Position numbers and translations under genes: made by a program. DNA of 64,000 nucleotides from Felis catus (taxonomy: Eukaryota): NCBI RefSeq assembly GCF_018350175.1, contig NC_058368.1:40240001-40304000 (forward strand). The letters are read 5' to 3'. Below the pieces are notes generated by a model. It worked only from the letters and a program-made list of their open reading frames with translations. It had not been told where the DNA came from and did not search any database. Shown here piece after piece: positions 21,935-56,952 of this stretch (its first letter is position 1; each line of letters begins with the position of its first letter).

Positions 21935-23061
21935 TAACATAAAATATCTTAAAGTTACTGCATTGTATTTTAAGCTGTTAAGAGCTTAACTGCAGCCACC
22001 TATAAATCCCTACTCTTTTACAGTTTCATCCCTTACATTTTTTTTATTGATGTCACAGCTTTCATCTTTATATATTGTAAAATCATTAACACAAATTTTT
22101 ATTTTTTAGTGCTTTTGTAACTTAAATTATATTCAAAGTTAAAAGCAAACAATATTATAATAAATAGAGGTTACTAATTTTTGTCTTGTTTTTACCTTTA
22201 ATGGAGAAATTTATATTTTTAATGGCTTCATGCTTTTATCTATTGTTTTATCATTTCAACCTGAAGGACTTCTGTTAGCATTTGTTGTAAAATAGGTATG
22301 ATGGTAATGAACTTTTTTAGTTTTTGTTTATCGGGGATTTTAATTTTTCCTTTCTGCGTATAGTATTTTCTTTGATAGTTTTTTTTTTCCCCTCTCTATT
22401 TTGAATATATCACCCTTCCTTTTGGCCTGAAAGGTTTCTATTGAGAAATCTACCAATAACTTATAAAAGTTCTATTATATATGATAAGTTGCTTTTCTCT
22501 TGCTACCTTCAAGATTCTTTGTCTTTGACTTTTGGCAGATTGGTCATAATGAGTTTTATGTAGATATCTTTGAGTTAAGTCTAGTTGGATTACATTAAGC
22601 ATCTTGAATTTTTACATTCACTCCTTTCCACGTTTGAGAACCTTTTAAGCATTACTTTTTTTTCTTTTTTTTCAATATATGAAATTTATTGTCAAAATGG
22701 TTTCCATACAACACCCAGTGCTCATCCCAAAAGGTGCCCTCCTCAGTACCCATCACCCACCCTCCCCTCCCTCCCACCCCCCATCAACCCTCAGTTTGTT
22801 CTTAGTTTTTTTTTTCTATTTTTTTCTATTTTTTTTATTATATATGAAATTTATTGACAAATTGGTTTCCATACAACACCCAGTGCTCATCCCAAAAGGT
22901 GCCCTCCTCAATACCCAACACCCACCCTCTCCTCCCTCCCACCCCCCATCAACCCTCAGTTTGTTCTCAGTTTTTAACAGTCTCTTATGCTTTGGCTCTC
23001 TCCCACTCTAACCTCTTTTTTTTTTTTCCTTCCCCTCCCCCATGGGTTCCTGCTAAGTTTC

Positions 23062-26000
23062 TCAGGATCCACATAAGAGTGAAACCATATGGTATCTGTC
23101 TTTCTCTGTATGGCTTATTTCACTTAGCATCACACTCTCCAGTTCCATCCACGTTGCTACAAAAGGCCATATTCCATTTTTTCTCATTGCCACGTAATAT
23201 TCCATTGTGTATATAAACCACAATTTCTTTATCCATTCATCAGTTGATGGACATTTAGGCTCTTTCCATAATTTGGCTATTGTTGAGAGTGCTGCTATGA
23301 ACATTGGGGTACAAGTGGCCCTATGCATCAGTACTCCTGTATCCCTTGGGTAAATTCCTAGCAGTGCTATTGCTGGGTCATAGGGTAGGTCTATTTTTAA
23401 TTTTCTGAGGAAACTCCACACTGCTTTCCAGAGCGGCTGCACCAATTTGCATTCCCACCAACAGTGCAAGAGGGTTCCCGTTTCTCCACATCCTCTCCAG
23501 CATCTATAGTCTCCTGATTTGTTCATTTTGGCCACTCTGACTGGCGTGAGGTGATACCTGAGTGTGGTTTTGATTTGTATTTCCCTGATAAGGAGCGACG
23601 CTGAACATCTTTTCATGTGCCTGTTGGCCATCCGGATGTCTTCTTTAGAGAAGTGTCTATTCATGTTTTCTGCCCATTTCTTCACTGGGTTATTTGTTTT
23701 TCGGGTGTGGAGTTTGGTGAGCTCTTTATAGATTTTGGATACTAGCCCTTTGTCCGATATGTCATTTGCAAATATCTTTTCCCATTCTGTTGGTTGCCTT
23801 TTAGTTTTGTTGGTTGTTTCCTTTGCTGTGCAGAAGCTTTTTATCTTCATAAGGTCCCAGTAATTCACTTTTGCTTTTAATTCCCTTTCCTTTGGGGATG
23901 TGTCAAGTAAGAGATTGCTACGGCTGAGGTCAGAGAGGTCTTTTCCTGCTTTCTCCTCTAAGGTTTTGATGGTTTCCTGTCTCACATTTAGGTCCTTTAT
24001 CCATTTTGAGTTTATTTTTGTGAATGGTGTGAGAAAGTGGTCTAGTTTCAATCTTCTGCATGTTGCTGTCCAGTTCTCCCAGCACCATTTGTTAAAGAGG
24101 CTGTCTTTTTTCCATTGGATGTTCTTTCCTGCTTTGTCAAAGATGAGTTGGCCATACGTTTGTGGGTCTAGTTCTGGGGTTTCTATTCTATTCCATTGGT
24201 CTATGTGTCTGTTTTTGTGCCAATACCATGCTGTCTTGATGATGACAGCTTTGTAGTAGAGGCTAAAGTCTGGGATTGTGATACCTCCTGCTTTGGTCTT
24301 CTTCAAAATTACTTTGGCTATTTGGGGCCTTTTGTGGTTCCATATGAATTTTAGGATTGCTTGTTCTAGTTTTGAGAAGAATGCTGGTGCAATTTTGATT
24401 GGGATTGCATTGAATGTGTAGATAGCTTTGGGTAGTATTGACATTTTGACAATATTTATTTTTCCAATCCATGAGCAGGGAATGTCTTTCCATTTCTTTA
24501 TATCTTCTTCAATTACCCTCATAAGCTTTCTATAGTTTTCAGCATACAGATCTTTTACATCTGTGGTTAGATTTATTCCTAGGTATTTTATGCTTCTTGG
24601 TTCAATTGTGAATGGGATCAGTTTCTTTATTTGTCTTTCTGTTCCTTCATTGTTAGTGTATAAGAATGCAACTGGGGCGCCTGGGTGGCGCAGTCGGCTA
24701 AGCATCCGACTTCAGCTAGGTCACGATCTCGCGGTCGGTGAGTTCGAGCCCCGCGTCGGGCTCTGGGCTGATGGCTCAGAGCCTGGAGCCTGTTTCCGAT
24801 TCTGTGTCTCCCTCTCTCTCTGCCCCTCCCCCGTTCATGCTCTGTCTCTCTCTGTCCCAAAAATAAATAAATGTTGAAAAAAAAAATTAAAAAAAAAAAA
24901 AGAATGCAACTGATTTCTGTACATTGATTTTGTATCCTGCAACTTTGCTGAATTCATGTATCAGTTCTAGCAGACTTCTGGTGGAGTCTATCGGATTTTC
25001 CATGTATAGTATCATGTCATCTGCAAAAAGTGAAAGCTTGACTTCATCTTTGCCAATTTTGATGCCTTTGATTTCCTTTTGTTGTCTGATTGCTGATGCT
25101 AGAACTTCCAACACTATGTTAAACAACAGCGGTGAGAGTGGGCATCCCTGTGTTGTTCCTGATCTCAGGGAAAAAGCTCTCAGTTTTTCCCCATTGAGGA
25201 TGATGTTAGCTGTGGGCTTTTCATAAATGGCTTTTATGATGTTTAAGTATGCTCCTTCTATCCCGACTTTCTCAAGGGTTTTTATTAAGAAAGGTTGCTG
25301 AATTTTGTCAAAGGCCTTTCTGCATCGATTGACAGGATCATATGGTTCTTATCTTTTCTTTTATTAATATGATGTATCACGTTGATTGATTTGCGAATGT
25401 TGAACCAGTCCTGCATCCCTGGAATGAATCCCACTTGATCATGGTGAATAATTCTTTTTATATGCTGTTGAATTCGATTTGCTAGTATCTTATTGAGAAT
25501 TTTTGCATCCATATTCATCAGGGATATTGGCCTGTAGTTCTCTTTTTTTACTGGGTCTCTGTCTGGTTTGGGAATCAAAGTAATACTGGCTTCATAGAAT
25601 GAGTCTGGAAGTTGTCCTTCCCTTTCTATTTTTTGGAATAGCTTGAGAAGGATAGGTATTATCTCTGCTTTAAACGTCTGGTAGAACTCCCCTGGGAAGC
25701 CATCTGGTCCTGGACTCTTATTTGTTGGGAGATTTTTGATAACCGATTCAATTTCTTCGCTGGTTATGGGTCTGTTCAAGCTTGCTATTTCATCCTGATT
25801 GAGTTTTAGAAGAGTGTGGGTGTTTAGGAAGTTGTCCATTTGTTGGCATATAATTTTTCATAGTATTCCCTGATAATTGTTTGTATCTCTGAGGGATTGG
25901 TTGTAATAATTCCATTTTCATTCATGATTTTATCTATTTGGGTCCTCTCCCTTTTCTTTTTGAGAAGCCTGGCTAGAGGTTTGTCAATTTTGTTTATTTT

Positions 26001-27101
26001 TTCAAAAAACCAACTCTTGGTTTCGTTGATCTGCTCTACAGTTTTTTTAGATTCTATATTGTTTATTTCTGCTCTGATCTTTATTATTTCTCTTCTTCTG
26101 CTGGGTTTAGGCTGCCTTTGCTGTTCTGCTTCTAGTTCCTTTAGGTGTGCTGTTAGATTTTCTATTTGGGATTTTTCTGGTTTCTTAAGATAGGCCTGGA
26201 TTGCAATGTATTTTCCTCTCAGGACTGCCTTCGCTGCGTCCCAAAGCGTTTGGATTGTTGTATTTTCATTTTCGTTTGTTTCCATGTAGTTTTTAATTTC
26301 TTCTCTAATTGCCTGGTTGACCCACTCATTCTTTAGTAGGGTGTTCTTTAACCTCCATACTTTTGGAGGCTTTCGAGACTTTTTCCTGTGGTTGATTTCA
26401 AGCCTCATAGCATTGTGGTCTGAAAGTATGCATGGTATAATTTCAATTCTTGTATACTTATGAAGGGCTGTTTTGTGACCCAGTATATGATCTATCTTGG
26501 AGAATGTTCCATGTGCACTCGAGAAGAAAGTATATTCTTTTGCTTTGGGATGCAGAGTTCTAAATATATCTGTCATGTCCATCTGATCCAATGTCTCATT
26601 CAGGGCCCTTGTTTCTTTATTGACCGTGTGCCTAGATTATCTATCCATTTCTGTAAGTGAAGTGTTAAAGTCCCCTGCAATTACCACATTCTTATCAATA
26701 AGGTTGCTTACGTTTATGAGTAATTGTTTTATATATTTGGGGGCTCCCGTATTCGGCGCATAGACATTTATAACTGGTAGCTCTTCCTGATGGAGAGACC
26801 CTGTAATTATTATACAATGCCCTTCTTCATCTCTTGTTACAGCCTTTTATTGAAAGTCTAGTTTGTCTGATATAAGTATGGCTACTCCAGCTTTCTTTTG
26901 GCTTCCAGTAGCATGATAAATAGTTCTCCATCCCCTCACTCTCAATCTAAATGTGTCCTCAGGTCTAAAATGAGTCTCTTGTAGACAGCAAATAGATGGG
27001 TCTTGTTTTTTTATCCATTCTGATACCCTATGTCTTTTGGTTGGCACATTTAATCCATTTACATTCAGTGTTATTACAGAAAGATATGAGTTTAGAGTCA
27101 T
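23062..27101 (-). pseudogene. Disrupted L1 ORF2
   Basis: ORF2 fragments in the track (23062-24705, 24887-25126, 25285-25839, 25824-26591, 26847-27155). SINE insertion at 24674, 1-bp deletion ~25317, ~19-bp deletion ~25841, nonsense change ~26847. Confidence 0.93.
24674..24899 (+). mobile_element. Young SINEC_Fc-type SINE inserted in L1 ORF2
   Basis: GGGGCGCCTGGGTGGCGCAGTCGG head, B-box GTTCGAGCCC, (CT)n, poly(A); TSD AAGAATGCAACT at 24662-24673 and 24900-24911. Confidence 0.97.
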
Positions 27102-27151
27102 TGTGATGTCTGTATGTTTTATGCTTGTAGCGATGTCTCTGGTACTTTGTC

Positions 27152-28041
27152 TCACAGGATTCCCCTTAGGATCTCTTGTAGGGCTGGTTTAATGGTGAGG
27201 AATTCCTTCAGTTTTTGTTTGTTTGGGAAGACCTTTATCTCTCCTTCTATTCTAAATGACAGACTTGCTGGATAAAGGATTCTCGGCTGCATATTTTTTC
27301 TGTTCATCACATTGAAGGTCTCCTGGCATTCCTTTCTGGCCTGCCAAGTTTCAAAAGAGAGATTGGTCACAAGTCTTATAGGTCTCCCTTTATATGTTAG
27401 GGCACGTTTATCCCTTGCTGCTTTCAGAATTTTCTCTTTTATCCTTGTATTTTGCCAGTTTCACTATGATATGTCGTGCAGAAGATCGATTCAAGTTACG
27501 TCTGAAGGGAGTTCTCTGTGCCTGTTGGATTTCAATGTCTTTTTCCTTCTCCAGTTCAGGGAAGTTCTCAGCTATTATTTCTTCAAGTACCCCTTCAGCA
27601 CCTTTCCCTCTCTCTTCCTCCTCTGGGATACCAATTATGCGTATATTATTTCTTTTTAGTGTATCACTTAGTTCTCTAATTTTCCCCTCATACTCCTGGA
27701 TTTTTTTATCTTTTTCTCAGCTTCCTCTTTTTTGTAATTTTATCTTCTAGTTCACCTATTCTCTCCTCTGCCTCTTCAATCCGAGCCATAGACGTTTCCA
27801 TTTTATTTTGCATCTCGTTTAAAGCGGTTTTCAGCTCCTCCTGACTGTTCCTTAGTCCCTTGATCTCTGTAGCAAGAGATTCTCTGCTGTCCTGTATACT
27901 GTTTTCAAGCCCAGCGATTAATTTTATGACTATTATTCTAAATTCACTTTCTGTGATATTATTTAAATCCTTTTTGATCAGCTCATTAGCTGTTGTTATT
28001 TCCTGGAGATTCTTCTGAGGGGAATTCTTCCGCTTGGTCAT
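27152..28041 (-). pseudogene. Frameshifted L1 ORF1
   Basis: ORF1 N-terminus (MTKRKNSPQ...) in 27706-28080 and C-terminus in 27152-27370; indels near 27440 and 27710-27735 relative to the intact copy. Confidence 0.9.
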
Positions 28042-28961
28042 TTTGGATAGTCCCTGGCGTGGTGAGGACCTGCAGGGCACTTCCCCTGTGCTGTGGTGTA
28101 TAACTGGAGTTGGTGGGCGGGGCCGCAGTCATACCTGATGTCTCCCCCCAGCCCACCGCTGGGACCACAGTCCGACTGGTGTGTGCCTTCTCTTCCCCTC
28201 TCCTAGGGCCGGGATTCACTGTGGGGTGGTGTGGCCCGTCTGGGCTACTTGCACACTGCCAGGCTTGTGGAGCTGGGGATCTGGCATATTAGCTGGGGTG
28301 GGTAGGCAAGGTGCACGGGGGCAGGAGGGGCAGGCTTATCTCGCTTCTTCTTAGGTGATCCACATCAGGAGGGGCCCTGTGGCAGCGGGAGGGAGTCAGA
28401 CCCGCTGCCGGAGGGGTGGCTCCGCAGAAGCACAGTGTTGGGTGTTTGCGCTGAGCAAGCAAGTTCCCTGGCAGGAACTGGTTCTCTTTGGGATTTTGGC
28501 TGGGGGATGGGCGAGGGAGATGGCCCCGGGAGTGCCTTTGTTCCCCTCCAAACTGAGCTCTGTTGTCCCAGGGCTCAGCAACTCTCCCTCCCTTTGTCCT
28601 CCAGCCTTCCTGCTTTCAGAGACATAGCTGTTAACTTATGACCTCCCAGATGCTAAGTCCCGCTTGCTGTGGGAACACGGAACACACTCCGTCCAGCCCC
28701 TCTGCTTTTGCAAGCCAGACTTGGGGGCTCTGCTTGGCTGGCAGGCCGCTCCTCCGCCCCTGGCTCCCTCCCGCCAGTCCGTGGAGCGCGCACCACCTGT
28801 CCTCCCTTCCTATCGTCTTCCGTTTGCCTCTCGTCTGCTCTTGGCTTGGCTTCGGAGACTTAGTTCTGCTAATCCTCTGGCGGTTTTCTGGGTTATTTAG
28901 GCAGGTGTAGGTGGAATCTAAGTGATCAGCAGGACGCGCGGTGAGCCCAGCGTCCTCCTAT

Positions 28962-28972
28962 GCCGCCATATT
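28962..28972 (-). promoter_or_regulatory. YY1-binding motif at L1 5' terminus
   Basis: GCCGCCATATT on + matches the YY1 consensus GCCGCCATNTT, at the position expected for mammalian L1 5' ends. Confidence 0.7.
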
Positions 28973-30495
28973 CCTCCAATCAAGCATTATTTTTCAAATA
29001 AGCTGTCTGCCCCTTTTGCCACTGTCCTTCTTCAATGACTCCTATAATGCATGTTATAATTCCTAACATCATAATGTAATTATTAGTCAAGCTGCTATAA
29101 AGGTCCATGGGGAGACTTTTGAGTGGAAATAATTTTTGTAGTTAATTTGGGTAAATGCTAAGAAGTGTGATTGGTGAATCCTAGTGTGAGTATATATTTA
29201 CTTTTATGAGAAACTATCACCGTGTCTTCCAAAGCAGGTGCGCCATTTTCCCGATACCAAGTAATGTGGTTACTTGTTGCTCTGCATCATTGCCAGTATT
29301 TGGTGCTGTCAGTGTTCTGGATTGGTCACTTTAGTAGATATATAATAGCATTTAATTTTCGTCAGTTTGCATTTCCCTGATGACCTATGTTGTGGGGCAC
29401 ATTTTCATATTCCTATTGGCCATTTTTGTATCTTCTTTGATGAAGTAAATGTCTGTTAAGGTCTTTGGCCTATTTTTAAATTGTGTTGTTTATGTTTTAT
29501 TGCTGAGTTTTAAGAATTCCTTGTGTATTTTGAGTAACAGTCCTTTATCATTTATGTTGTTTTGCAAATTCTTAAAGTCTGTGGTTTTTTAAAATATCTC
29601 TTGACAGTGTCTTTTGCTGAGTTCAAGTTTTTTATTTTAATTTTATTTAGTAAACTGTATCTTAGCGATTCTTTCTGTCCTGAATTGTTCCTTTGGTGTT
29701 GTATCTAAAATATCATCATCAAACCCATGGTTATGTTGATTTTTCCTGTGTTATCTTTTAACAGCTCTTTGGTTTTTTGTTTGTATGTAGATGTGAAGTT
29801 TTTAAAAGACTACCTATTTATTGAAAAGACCATCTTTTTTTTTTCTTTTCTATTTTATTGCCTTTCTCTTTTATCAATCTGCAAACAAAGACAGTTTTTC
29901 TTTCTTCTCAATCTGTATATCTTTAATATGTCATAGGTTTAGCTAGGAATTCAGCTACAGTGTTGAAAAGGAGTGGTGAAAGGGGATAACCTTGTTCCTG
30001 ATCTTGGTGGGAAAGCCTTGAGTTTCTTACCATTAACTGTGACATGACCTAAGTTTTTTGTATGTGTTCTGTATTAAGTTGAGTGAGTTCTCTATTCCTA
30101 GTTTTCTTAGAGTTTTGAACATGAATGGATATTATATTTTGTCAAGGCCTTTTCCTGCTTCTGATGGTATGATTATCTGTTATTTCTTCATTAGCCCTTT
30201 GCTATGATAGTTTATTTTACAATGTTGAGCCAGGCTTACATACTTTGGATAAATCCCACTTGATTGTGCTGTGTCCCTTTTATACATGGTTGGATTTGAT
30301 TTGTTAATATTCTGTTGAAAATTTTGTATCTATATTCATGAGAGATATTGGTCTATAGTTTTTGTGTAGCATGTTTTTCTGGTTTTAGTAATAGGGAATG
30401 CTGCCCTCACAGAATGAGTTAGGTATTTTCCCTTGGCTTCCATCTCTGAAAGCGATTATAGAGGATTAGTATAATTTCCTTAAAATTTTTACTGA

Positions 30496-49720: not shown

Positions 49721-50691
49721 ACCTCCTGGTAGAGCCCTGGGCATTTCTGCAGGATATTTTAACATAAACTTATCTTTTATGATAATACTCTTAATATTCT
49801 GTAATCAGCTTTTGTAATAATCAATAATTTGTATATACAAGAAAAATTTCATACTGCAGTAAGAATCCTCTTATGCAAATTAATTATTCTAAAGTTTCTG
49901 TCTCATTATTTGTTTACACTAAAAGTCTTAATGTTGGAGGACTTGTTTGGAAAATCTGATCGAAAATACATGGTAGTGTCATAGAAAAGTTAAAGGTAGA
50001 ATAACCTCAAGGCAATACAGAATTATTCACCAAAATGATTATAAGTGTTAGAGCTAGGTTGTTCATGCATGTGTAGCAGTTCTCCAGGGTAAGTAACAGA
50101 AGGGATTTATTTATTCAAGAATGGTTCCTATTTCCTCTGAGTATGCTTGATTGGCCAGCTGTTTATAAATATGTAGGATTGTATTACAATATCAAAGCAG
50201 AAAGTACATCTAAGACTCATGAACCAAAACAGAAACAAGAACTAGTATTAGGAACCAAGGCAGCTAATTTTTTAGGGCCTCTTCAAGGAGTTACGATCTT
50301 GCCTCTTTCTCTGCTTTTCATGGTAAACCTGTGTGTCACAGCTAACTTTTTCTCTGTAATTCTGCATGCACATGTACACATGACCTACTATGCTCACCCA
50401 CCCAATAATAATCCTCAGTTCTAGCCATCAACTGAAATCAATTCCAAATTTTTGGAGAGATCATCCAGTTGTCTCAATCTGGGCCAGGTTTCTAAGCTTG
50501 GAGTTCTTGCTTTGGCCCAGGAACTGTTAAATAGAACAGTCATGGCTCTAAAAGCTTATGAGGCTTTCACAGACTGGTTGCTATGGACAAGGTAACAGCA
50601 AGAAGTCTCTATTTGGGTGGCAGAAATAATGGTTTTAATTTTACTTTGATGAGAGATTTAAATTAACAAGTGTGTTATGCAAATAGGTAAT

Positions 50692-50724
<33 letters not shown>

Positions 50725-51011
50725 TTTCTTGCTAGCTTTGTTCCTTTTCTTTTTAGCTCTTTTTTTTTTTTTTTTCTTCTTTTTTTTTTTTTTAATATGA
50801 AATTTATTGACAAATTAGTTTCCATACAACACCCAGTGCTCATCCCAGAAGGTGCCCTCCTCAATACCCATCACCCACCCTCTCCTCCCTCCCACCCCCC
50901 ATCAACCCTCAGTTTGTTCTCAGGTTTTAAGAGTCTCTTATACTTTGGCTCTCTCCCACTCTAACCTGTTTTTTTTTTCCTTCCCCTCCCCCATGGGTTC
51001 CTGTTAAATTC

Positions 51012-54000
51012 TCAGGGTCCACATAAGAGTGAAACCATATGGTATCTGTCTTTCTCTGTATGGCTTATTTCACTTAGCATCACACTCTCCAGTTCCATCC
51101 ACGTTGCTACAAAAGGCCATATTTCATTTTTTCTCATTGCCACGTAATATTCCATTGTGTATATAAACCACAATTTCTTTATCCATTCATCAGTTGATGG
51201 ACATTTAGGCTCTTTCCATAATTTGGCTATTGTTGAGAGTGCTGCTATGAACATTGGGGTACAAGTGGCCCTATGCATCAGTACTCCTGTATCCCTTGGA
51301 TAAATTCCTAGCAGTGCTATTGCTGGGTCATAGGGTAGGTCTATTTTTAATTTTCTGAGGAACCTCCACACTGCTTTCCAGAGCGGCTGCACCAATTTGC
51401 ATTCCCACCAACAGTGCAAGAGGGTTCCCGTTTCTCCACATCCTCTCCAGCATCTAGAGTCTCCTGATTTGTTCATTTTGGCCACTCTGACTGGCGTGAG
51501 GTGATACCTGAGTGTGGTTTTGATTTGTATTTCCCTGATAAAGAGCGACGCTGAACATCTTTTCATGTGCCTGTTGGCCATCCGGATGTCTTCTTTAGAG
51601 AAGTGTCTATTCATGTTTTCTGCCCATTTCTTCACTGGGTTATTTGTTTTTCGGGTGTGGAGTTTGGTGAGCTCTTTATAGATTTTGGATACTAGCCCTT
51701 TGTCCGATATGTCATTTGCGAATATCTTTTCCCATTCCGTTGGTTGCCTTTTAGTTTTGTTGGTTGTTTCCTTTGCTGTGCAGAAGCTTTTTATCTTCAT
51801 AAGGTCCCAGTAATTCACTTTTGCTTTTAATTCCCTTGCCTTTGGGGATGTGTTGAGTAAGAGATTGCTACGGCTGAGGTCAGAGAGGTCTTTTCCTGCT
51901 TTCTCCTCTAAGGTTTTGATGGTTTCCTGTCTCACATTTAGGTCCTTTATCCATTTTGAGTTTATTTTTGTGAATGGTGTGAGAAAGTGGTCTAGTTTCA
52001 ACCTTCTGCATGTTGCTGTCCAGTTCTCCCAGCACCATTTGTTAAAGAGGCTGTCTTTCTTCCATTGGATGTTCTTTCCTGCTTTGTCAAAGATGAGTTG
52101 GCCATACGTTTGTGGGTCTAGTTCTGGGGTTTCTATTCTATTCCATTGGTCTATGTGTCTGTTTCTGTGCCAATACCATGCTGTCTTGATGATGACAGCT
52201 TTGTAGTAGAGGCTAAAGTCTGGGATTGTGATGCCTCCTGCTTTGGTCTTCTTCTTCAAAATTCCTTTGGCTATTCGGGGCCTTTTGTGGTTCCATATGA
52301 ATTTTAGGATTGTTTGTTCTAGTTTCGAGAAGAATGCTGGTGCAATTTTGATTGGGATTGCATTGAATGTGTAGATAGCTTTGGGTAGTATTGACATTTT
52401 GACAATATTTATTTTTCCAATCCATGAGCAGGGAATGTCTTTCCATTTCTTTAAATCTTCTTCAATTTCCTTCATAAGCTTTCTATAGTTTTCAGCATAC
52501 AGATCTTTTACATCTTTGGTTAGATTTATTCCTAGGTATTTTATGCTTCTTGGTGCAATTGTGAATGGGATCAGTTTCTTTATTTGTCTTTCTGTTGCTT
52601 CATTGTTAGTGTATAAGAATGCAACTGATTTCTGTACATTGATTTTGTATCCTGCAACTTTGCTGAATTCCTGTATCAGTTCTAGTAGACTTTTGGTGGA
52701 GTCTATCGGATTTTCCATGTATAATATCATGTCATCTGCAAAAAGCGAAAGCTTGACTTCGTCTTTGCCAATTTTGATGCCTTTGATTTCCTTTTGTTGT
52801 CTGATTGCTGATGCTAGAACTTCCAGCACTATGTTAAACAGCAGCGGTGAGAGTGGGCATCCTTGTCGTGTTCCTGATCTCAGGGAAAAAGCTCTCAGTT
52901 TTTCCCCGTTGAGGATGATGTTAGCTGTGGGCTTTTCATAGATGGCTTTTATGATCTTTAAGTATGTTCCTTCTATCCCGACTTTCTCAAGGGTTTTTAT
53001 TAAGAAAGGGTGCTGGATTTTGTCAAAGGCCTTTTCTGCATCGATTGACAGGATCATATGGTTCTTCTCTTTTTTTTTGTTAATGTGATGTATCACGTTG
53101 ATTGATTTGCGAATGTTGAACCAGCCCTGCATCCCAGGAATGAATCCCACTTGATCATGGTGAATAATTCTTTTTATATGCCGTTGAATTCGATTTGCTA
53201 GTATCTTATTGAGAATTTTTGCATCCATATTCATCAGGGATATTGGCCTGTAGTTCTCTTTTTTTACTGGGTCTCTGTCAGGTTTAGGAATCAAAGTAAT
53301 ACTGGCTTCATAGAATGAGTCTGGAAGTTTTCCTTCCCTTTCTATTTCTTGGAATAGCTTGAGAAGGATAGGTATTATCTCTGCTTTAAACGTCTGGTAG
53401 AACTCCCCTGGGAAGCCATCTGGTCCTGGACTCTTATTTGTTGGGAGATTTTTGATAACCGATTCAATTTCTTCACTGGTTATGGGTCTGTTCAAGCTTT
53501 CTATTTCCTCCTGATTGAGTTTTGGAAGAGTGTGGGTGTTCAGGAATTTGTCCATTTCTTCCAGGTTGTCCAATTTGTTGGCATATAATTTTTCATAGTA
53601 TTCCCTGATAATTGTTTGTATCTCTGAGGGATTGGTTGTAATCATTCCATTTTCATTCATGATTTTATCTATTTGGGTCATCTCCCTTTTCTTTTTGAGA
53701 AGCCTGGCTAGAGGTTTGTCAATTTTGTTTATTTTTTCAAAAAACCAACTCTTGGTTTCGTTGATCTGCTCTACAGTTTTTTTAGATTCTATATTGTTTA
53801 TTTCTGCTCTGATCTTTATTATTTCTCTTCTTCTGCTGGGTTTAGGCTGCCTTTGCTGTTCTGCTTCTAGTTCCTTTAGGTGTGCTGTTAGATTTTGTAT
53901 TTGGGATTTTTCTTGTTTCTTGAGATAGGCCTGGATTGCAATGTATTTTCCTCTCAGGACTGCCTTCGCTGCGTCCCAAAGCGTTTGGATTGTTGTATTT

Positions 54001-54836
54001 TCATTTTCGTTTGTTTCCATATATTTTTTAATTTCTTCTCTAATTGCCTGGTTGACCCACTCATTCGTTAGTAGGGTGTTCTTTAACCTCCATGCCTTTG
54101 GAGGTTTTCCAGACTTTTTCCTGTGGTTGATTTCAAGCTTCATAGCATTGTGGTCTGAAAGTATGCATGGTATAATTTCAATTCTTGTAAACTTATGAAG
54201 GGCTGTTTTGTGACCCAGTATGTGATCTATCTTGGAGAATGTTCCATGTGCACTCGAGAAGAAAGTATATTCTGTTGCTTTGGGATGCAGCGTTCTAAAT
54301 ATATCTGTCAAGTCCATCTGATCCAATGTCTCATTCAGGGCCCTTGTTTCTTTATTGACCGTGTGTCTAGATGATCTGTCCATTTCTGTAAGTGGGGTGT
54401 TAAAGTCCCCTGCAATTACCACATTCTTATCAATAAGATTGCTTATGTTTATGAGTAATTGTTTTATATATTTGGGGGCTCCGGTATTCGGCGCATAGAC
54501 ATTTACAATTGTTAGCTCTTCCTGATGGATAGACCCTGTAACTATTATATAATGTCCTTCTTCATCTCTTGTTACAGCCTTTAATTTAAAGTCTAGTTTG
54601 TCTGATATAAGTATGGCTACTCCAGCTTTCTTTTGGCTTCCAGTCGCATGATAAATAGTTCTCCATCCCCTCACTCTCAATCTAAAGGTGTCCTCAGGTC
54701 TAAAATGAGTCTCTTGTAGACAGCAAATAGATGGGTCTTGTTTTTTTATCCATTCTGATACCCTATGTCTTTTGGTTGGTGCATTTAATCCATTTACATT
54801 CAGTGTTATTATAGAAAGATACGGGTTGAGAGTCAT
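51012..54836 (-). CDS. ORF2: LINE-1 ORF2p (endonuclease / reverse transcriptase / C-terminal cysteine-rich domain), 1274 aa from first ATG
   Basis: Uninterrupted ORF. APE endonuclease motifs (NVNGLN, CLQETH, GDFN, SDH), RT motifs ([12 protein letters not shown]), C-terminal CWRGC...HCWWEC. ATG of MTLNPY at 54836; the ORF track start at 54890 is a GTG. Confidence 0.97.
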
Positions 54837-54886: not shown

Positions 54887-55780
54887 TCACAGGGTCCCCC
54901 TTAGGATCTCTTGTAGGGCTGGTTTAGTGGTGACAAATTCCTTCAGTTTTTGTTTGTTTGGGAAAACCTTTATCTCTCCTTCTATTCTAAATGACAGACT
55001 TGCTGGGTAAAGGATTCTCGGCTGCATATTTTTTCTGTCTAGCACCCTGAAAATCTCGTGCCAATTCTTTCTGGCCTGCCAAGTTTCAAAAGAGAGATCA
55101 GTCACGAGTCTTATAGGTCTCCCTTTATATGTGAGGGCACGTTTACCCCTTGCTGCTTTCAGAATTTTCTCTTTATCCTTGTATTTTGCCAGTTTCACTA
55201 TGATATGTCGTGCTGAAGATCGATTCAAGTTACGTCTGAAGGGAGTTCTCTGTGCCTCTTGGATTTCAATGCCTTTTTCCTTCCCCAGTTCAGGGAAGTT
55301 CTCAGCTATGATTTCTTCAAGTACCCCTTCAGCACCTTTCCCTCTCTCTTCCTCCTCTGGGATACCAATTATGCGTATATTATTTCTTTTTAGTGTATCA
55401 CTTAGTTCTCTAATTTTCCCCTCATACTCCTGGATTTTTTTATCTCTCTTTTTCTCAGCTTCCTCTTTTTCCATAACTTTATCCTCTAGTTCACCTATTC
55501 TCTCCTCTGCCTCTTCAAGCCGAGCTGTGGTGGTTTCCATTTTGTTATGCATTTCGTTTAAAGCGTTTTTCAGCTCCTCGTGACTGTTCCTTAGTCCCTT
55601 GATCTCTGTAGCAAGAGATTCTCTGCTGTCCTGTATACTGTTTTCAAGCCCAGCGATTAATTTTATGACTATTATTCTAAATTCACTTTCTGTTAAATTA
55701 TTTAAATCCTTTTTGATCAGTTCATTAGCTGTTGTTATTTCCTGGAGATTCTTCTGAGGGGAATTCTTCCGCTTGGTCAT
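54887..55780 (-). CDS. ORF1: LINE-1 ORF1p (RNA-binding chaperone; coiled coil-RRM-CTD), 297 aa
   Basis: ATG of MTKRKN at 55780. Heptad-rich coiled coil, [14 protein letters not shown] start, ARK/YPASLS CTD motifs; stop at 54887. Confidence 0.95.
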
Positions 55781-56597
55781 TTTGGATAGTCCCTGGCGTG
55801 GTGAGGACCTGCAGGGCACTTCCCCTGTGTTGTGGTGTATAACTGGAGTTGGTGGGCGGGGCCGCAGTCAGACCTGATGTCTGCCCCCAGCCCACCGCTG
55901 GGGCCACAGTCAGACTGGTGTGTGCCTTCTCTTCCCCTCTCCTAGGGGCGGGATTCACTGTGGGGTGGTGTGGCCCGTCTGGGCTACTTGCACACTGCCA
56001 GGCTTGTGATGCTGGGGATCTGGCGTATTAGCTGGGGTGGGTAGGCAAGGTGCACGGGGGTAGGAGGGGCAGGCTTAGATCGCTTCTCCTTAGGTGATCC
56101 TCTTCAGGAGGGGCCCTGTGGCAGCGGGAGGGAGTCAGATCCGCTGCCGGAGGTTTGGCTCCGCAGAAGCACAGAGTTGGGTGTTTGCGCGGAGCGAGCA
56201 AGTTCCCTGGCAGGAACTGGTTCTCTTTGGGATTTTGGCTGGGGGATGGGCGGGGGAGATGGCGCTGGCGAGCGCCTTTGTTCCCCACCAAGCTGAGCTC
56301 TGTCGTCAGGGGGCTCAGCAGCTCTCCCTCCCTTTGTCCTCCAGCCTTCCCGCTTTCTGAGCAGAGCTGTTAACTTATGACCTCCCAGACGCTAAGTCGC
56401 GCTTGTTGTGGGAACACAGTCCGTTAGGCCCCTCCGCTTTTGCCAGCCAGACTCGGGGGCTCTGCTTGGCCGGCGAGCCGCCCCTCCGCCCCGGCTCCCT
56501 CCCGCCAGTCCGTGGAGCGCGCACCGCCTCGCAGCCCTTCCTACCCTCTTCCGTGGGCCTCTCGTCTGCGTTTGGCTCCGGCGACTCCGTTCTGCTC
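55781..56597 (-). promoter_or_regulatory. L1 5'UTR internal Pol II promoter (CpG-rich), lacking its extreme 5' end
   Basis: GC/CpG-rich and homologous to 28042-28870 of the other L1; established L1 architecture. Confidence 0.85.
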
Positions 56598-56952
56598 GCA
56601 AATAGGTAATTAAAATAACTTTATTTTCAATTCCCTACAACACCCCTCACATTTAAATCTAGGTATAAACCAAGTTATTTTCTGACATTATTAATTTTAT
56701 GCTATTATAAGTTTTTGTTTTTACAATTATTTTTAAATTTTTCATTAGATCTCTTAACTCTATTTTAATGTTACTTCTTTTCTAAACCCATGGGAAAAGC
56801 TAGAATATAATTTATGTTACTGTAACATAGAGACTCAAATATGCTATGATTCAAAATACATAGAAGTTAAGTGTCTCTCACAGTATGTTCTAGAGGTAGG
56901 TAGGTGTCCCAGAGCAGGAATGCAGCTCTTATCCATACAATGATCAGGGCTT

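Follow-up and report, generated by a model that had tools for sequence, protein, structure and literature searches.

Two poly(A) tails around a 37-bp tag in a young cat L1: a probable 3′ transduction from a donor site that is empty in the assembly

Why should an L1 with intact reading frames end in two poly(A) tails, separated by 37 bp that do not belong to L1, and where would these 37 bp come from? The question is raised by an element on the − strand of a 64 000-nucleotide stretch of Felis catus DNA (contig NC_058368.1), the whole of which is called here the window. On sequence comparison, the best explanation appears to be a parentless L1 3′ transduction (probability approx. 0.88), the donor being an L1 on another contig (C17) that would segregate in the population or have been lost.

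Structure of the insertion

The initial annotation had described, at 50694–50793, a double poly(A) tail enclosing a 37-bp tag and followed by a TSD, and these coordinates proved exact. In + strand letters, T29 occupies 50694–50722, the tag 50723–50759 and the first tail 50760–50793, this last piece reading T16, C, TT, C, T14 (34 nt, an A-rich tail with two G in L1 sense). The TSD, taken as the longest word with its end at 50693 and a second occurrence in the window, is 15 bp long, and its 3′ copy (50679–50693) is identical to its 5′ copy (56598–56612), which TTT precedes in L1 sense. As the TSD encloses the L1, the first tail, the tag and the second tail, both tails and the tag belong to the insertion; within the TSD, the L1 tail is thus separated from a second poly(A) by non-L1 sequence, and this is the arrangement of a 3′ transduction. 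The second tail is a pure A29, up to three A of which may derive from the source template, and it directly adjoins the 15-bp TSD, as in LINE-1 insertions made by target-primed reverse transcription (TPRT). The target site reads TTT|TAATT in L1 sense: the TT-AA core is present and the full TT|AAAA consensus is absent. Two successive insertions at this site (C1) were ruled out by the single TSD, which the 5′ end of the L1 joins directly.

The body of the element follows on the − strand, with a 3′ UTR (50794–51011) whose own AATAAA (50803–50808) lies 9 nt before the first tail, ORF2 (51012–54836, 1274 aa), ORF1 (54887–55780, 297 aa; PF02994 and PF17490) and a 5′ UTR (55781–56597) from which the first 111–115 bp of full-length relatives are missing. 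Both ORFs are open, with no stop, and the endonuclease (PF03372, PF14529) and reverse transcriptase (PF00078) domains of ORF2 are those that an L1 mobilized by TPRT should carry. The single base between the TSD and the L1 5′ end (56597) is G as against T in relatives, and is either an untemplated addition or a substitution.

Another L1 of the window, on the − strand at approximately 22657–28990, had been taken as a sibling without the tag. The tag is indeed missing from it, but its identity to the tagged element (94.3% and 97.8% in the two main blocks) does not make it a sibling; judged by its sequence, it is an older copy, full-length and with broken ORFs. Moreover, its 3′ end is itself doubled, a tail being followed by a second 126-bp L1 3′ end (five differences), another tail and a repeat that resembles a TSD but has one mismatch; either a short L1 entered the tail or a neighbouring L1 fragment was transduced. 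This older L1 also displays a duplication block of approximately 165 bp near its 3′ UTR, retrieved as a third blastn piece.

Source of the tag

The assembly that was searched comprises 2.43 Gb in 71 contigs, and all genome-wide counts given here come from pattern or BLAST searches that score the best candidates only. With up to three mismatches allowed, the tag has two matches in the whole assembly, both exact: the window copy and G000:C17:145286357–145286393 (hereafter the source). The reversed control pattern matched nowhere in the genome; within the window, the tag was found once at up to three mismatches, and none of 100 shuffles matched. Identity with the source extends over 42 of 42 bp in the same sense, two A at the start and three A at the end being assignable to either side. 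The C17 copy continues into unique DNA without poly(A), as is the case for a transduced sequence that maps elsewhere. By contrast with what a subfamily consensus tail would predict, an objection foreseen in the initial annotation, the tag is absent from the tails of all 29 close relatives, taken from the best 40 of 1853 candidate matches to the element's 3′ end; one relative carries in its flank a 15-nt purine-rich chance match. The proposed 3′ transduction structure is therefore upheld, by a tag that lies between two A tails within the TSD, is missing from these relatives' tails and recurs exactly at one distant unique site.

It had also been anticipated that the match would lie immediately downstream of another full-length L1 and run on into unique sequence. 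The second part was found, but no L1 adjoins the source: blastn of the 5.8-kb element (E 1e-3) matched nothing in the 8.8 kb upstream and the 9.5 kb downstream of it. The source copy hence has no parent in the assembly and is, in this sense, parentless. As an identifier, the tag leads to a donor locus (C17), whereas the donor element itself was seen in none of the data, and the sibling copies that the tag was expected to reveal were not found in the assembly. An old ORF2 fragment as the origin of the tag was rejected, with no blastn match and two weak tblastn matches more than 7 kb away (E 0.015 and 0.49). Upstream of the source, L002:1250–1480 resembles the 3′ part of an old LTR, presumably of the MaLR type, that ends shortly past AATAAA, and a SINE lies approximately 380 bp downstream of the source.

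The stretch common to source and insertion starts exactly behind TT (TT|AAGA). On its sequence, this junction is an L1-endonuclease-type motif, the reported consensus being TTTTT/AA (PMC13141329, available text). Because 14% of 2571 local A-run starts follow TT by chance, the TT is modest evidence for the C17 locus taken alone. The C17 site nevertheless looks like a donor locus in its empty, pre-insertion state, in which case the first bases of the tag would be the donor's own TSD.

At the source, the sole canonical AATAAA straddles the end of the tag, and none lies 10–30 nt before it; in this interval only AAGAAA is found, a hexamer variant of the poly(A) signal, which ends 23 nt ahead of where the tag ends and, in the window, occupies 50746–50751 on the − strand, 23 nt before the second tail, as a candidate weak signal. 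The interval from +20 to +40 beyond the tag end is 80% T, a content equalled in 3.5% of 3665 local windows. The poly(A) signal used at the source would thus have been non-canonical. Cleavage in human genes needs no more than an A-rich upstream stretch and a strong downstream element (PMC2876958), and some transduction ends occur without a strong poly(A) signal (PMC13009371), according to the parts of these papers that were available.

Relatives, siblings and age

Neither the tag, nor the junction of tail and tag, nor the downstream flank has a further copy in the assembly by pattern and DNA searches, and the tail-plus-tag pattern matched the window copy alone. Since a query made of positions 1400–2200 of the source was swamped by the SINE, a SINE-free 371 bp was used instead, and its only two candidates were the source and the window copy. 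Two private variants in the 3′ UTR (50848 and 50924), at which all 29 relatives differ from the window copy, were likewise followed: no second copy with both was present in the best 40 of 331 candidates, and two copies with one of the two were rejected as siblings (98.5% and 95.9% identity, no tag).

Compared at full length with nine relatives, the element displays eight private substitutions in 5803 positions (50848, 50924, 52059, 52313, 52506, 54506, 56358 and 56425). Its identity to six near-full-length relatives is 99.4–99.8%, and the nearest among the nine differ from it at 13 positions each (L055 over 5804 bp, L051 over 5323 bp). By sequence, it is a member of a very young subfamily, and for elements of this age a dimorphic donor is to be expected.

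The double tail is not peculiar to this element. Indeed, at least four of the 29 relatives have a double tail and a short tag within the TSD, with tags of 25 nt (L023/L051), 14 nt plus A-rich bases (L040/L054), 9 nt (L031) and 13 nt (L032). TSDs were checked in 11 of the 29, three of which were chosen for their double-tailed look, and L052 gave none. Of these tags, those of L023/L051 and L040/L054 were traced. The former has one other copy, at G000:C10:88929857 (L048), with no young L1 upstream (9 kb contained a single 71% match, 174 bp long and on the opposite strand); the latter has one other copy, at G000:C31:47110791 (L063:1501), with no L1 in the 3 kb upstream. Both junctions read T|TAAA. 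All three traced tags (C17, C10 and C31) consequently lead to empty endonuclease-type sites, and double-tail transductions are common rather than rare in this subfamily, where they represent a class that is already described.

Competing explanations and meaning of the empty sites

The parentless 3′ transduction would have proceeded as follows. A full-length L1 would once have inserted on the + strand of G000:C17, between 145286354 and 145286355, at a TT|AA site. RNA polymerase II would then have run past the AATAAA and the genomic A tail of this donor into the flank, L1 transcripts being known to pass their own poly(A) signal often and to be copied along with the flank (PMC13141329, PMC7980453, both as far as their available text goes). 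The read-through RNA would have been cleaved 37–40 nt into the flank and polyadenylated, probably through the weak AAGAAA or an A-rich upstream signal together with the T-rich tract, and ORF2p would have copied it into C1 by TPRT, halting approximately 113 bp before the 5′ end. The expected product, made of L1, old tail, tag, new A29 and 15-bp TSD, corresponds to the structure observed, although the process itself is borrowed from established L1 biology; the first tail would be a copy of the donor's genomic tail and the A29 the new one. The site is empty on the assembled haplotype, presumably because the donor allele segregates or was lost by drift. Against this reading, the link between the L1 body and the C17 site has no independent support, as no sibling with the tag or with both 3′ UTR variants was found; the donor appeared in none of the data, and the poly(A) signal would be a non-canonical one.

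Among the alternatives, the one that survives best, though we consider it improbable, is a chimera formed without any donor at C17. In one form of it, a polyadenylated cellular RNA that ended at the C17 tag would have been the first template, an L1 RNA taking over at its poly(A) once 37 nt had been copied; in another, an insertion begun and aborted at the C17 nick would have captured the flank, the cDNA then being resolved at C1. The lack of an L1 at the source and the microhomology of two A at the junction would both agree with such an event, and template switching and RNA ligation do generate L1 chimeras (PMC13174262, available part). However, in the chimeras presented in that part, the foreign RNA sits 5′ of the L1 and not between two tails. 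Furthermore, a switch point needs no endonuclease motif, yet all three traced junctions fall on one, and an aborted DNA intermediate would leave the second, pure A29 unexplained. Extended to all three sources, the same idea would mean that no heritable L1 ever resided at C17:145286355 or at the other two empty sites, ORF2p having nicked each site and captured its flank, by aborted insertion or template switch, before integration on another chromosome. This general version is equally hard to credit; if true, a part of the mammalian ‘parentless’ transductions would be two-site events without any parent.

Still less probable is a donor once fixed at C17 and then removed cleanly by recombination between its TSD copies, or dropped during assembly. 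Such a loss would leave an identical empty site, but precise loss is rare, and since all three traced sources are empty, segregating donors fit far better than three clean deletions.

A further alternative, to which we give very little weight, retains a transduction from C17 but gives its 3′ end another mechanism: the RNA would have extended further along the flank, with internal priming in the A-rich stretch where the tag ends, and slippage instead of poly(A) polymerase would account for the A29. The tag does end inside AAAATAAA at the source, where the canonical signal is lacking from the preceding 10–30 nt. A pure run of 29 A is nonetheless hard to obtain from a template of three A, the observed end and the T-rich downstream element have their usual spacing, and, as seen above, some described transductions end where no strong signal is present. 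Lastly, a decayed poly(A) tail or a subfamily tail, either of which the 59% A of the tag might suggest, and a copying of C17 from C1 are refuted by the unique 42-bp match, by the 29 relatives' tails and by the C17 flank, which has no poly(A) after the tag and no TSD (the longest word common to the C1 and C17 flanks being 6 nt).

The parentless 3′ transduction also has close counterparts in other mammals. In dogs, 17 of 18 (PMC7980453) and 24 of 27 (PMC13141329) transductions were parentless in the available text of two studies, with tags mapping to sites without L1, a situation explained there by dimorphic parents. Here as in dogs, a young carnivore L1 carries a tag of at least 25 bp that maps to one other site without an adjacent L1; unlike here, where one assembly of another species was read, the dog offspring L1s were shown to be dimorphic by assembly comparison. 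In human long-read data, 71% of transductions (248 of 349) are shorter than 100 bp, and one source has a modal length of 37 bp (PMC13009371, available part). The cat insertion resembles these short partnered 3′ transductions, some of whose ends lack a strong poly(A) signal, in its length below 100 bp and in the poly(A) on both sides. Most of them, however, arose somatically in tumours from sources that are known, whereas ours belongs to a reference assembly in which the source element is not seen. The U6/L1 type of chimera likewise combines non-L1 sequence and L1 in the same sense within one TSD; there, in the portion of PMC13174262 available, the foreign part is at the 5′ end, whereas here the TSD directly adjoins the L1 5′ end, and the foreign part follows a complete L1 tail on the 3′ side, with a second tail of its own. 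The literature searched, with most subscription journals outside its coverage, yielded no paper on L1 transductions in cats. All in all, the insertion is ordinary biology, well explained and of a kind already described in dogs.

Sequencing reads from 24 runs were compared with window 50600–50860: 23 runs contained a part of it, none as much as half of the 27 sampled words (best share 0.33). Four of the 24 runs were compared over 50150–50800, with 50681–50800 skipped as repeat, and each of the four gave one contig extending 81–209 letters past 50680. An empty C1 allele would explain these contigs, which provide evidence neither way as to whether C1 is filled or empty, or as to the donor.

The practical use of the tag is that of a coordinate for finding an active L1. 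G000:C17:145286355 (+ strand) would be the exact place where a germline retrotransposition-competent L1 should occur in other individuals, and C10:88929857 and C31:47110791 are two more expected donor places, derived from close relatives. Taken together, these three sites suggest that the species, like dogs, has several L1 source elements that are active and segregating.

Some minor features of the relatives are also worth recording. A TSD or tag that starts with T right after the poly(A) (T-AA…) was seen in the window (56598–56612), in L058 and in the tags of L051 and L054; this start, shifted by one base in the 5′ direction from the usual TT|AAAA position, may reflect the position of the nick or of priming. 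L051 (G000:C2, approx. 128.81 Mb; L051:2411–2463), the closest relative, lacks approximately 428 bp of its 5′ UTR, with the flanks joined exactly; GT stands at the start of the lost segment, and a pyrimidine run and CAG at its end. We take this copy to be a spliced integrated L1 (SpIRE). Finally, the 5′-truncated relative L052:5596–6798 (G000:C18, approx. 49.61 Mb) contains an inverted piece of 330 bp, a pattern that corresponds to the mechanism named twin priming in the available text of PMC13009371.
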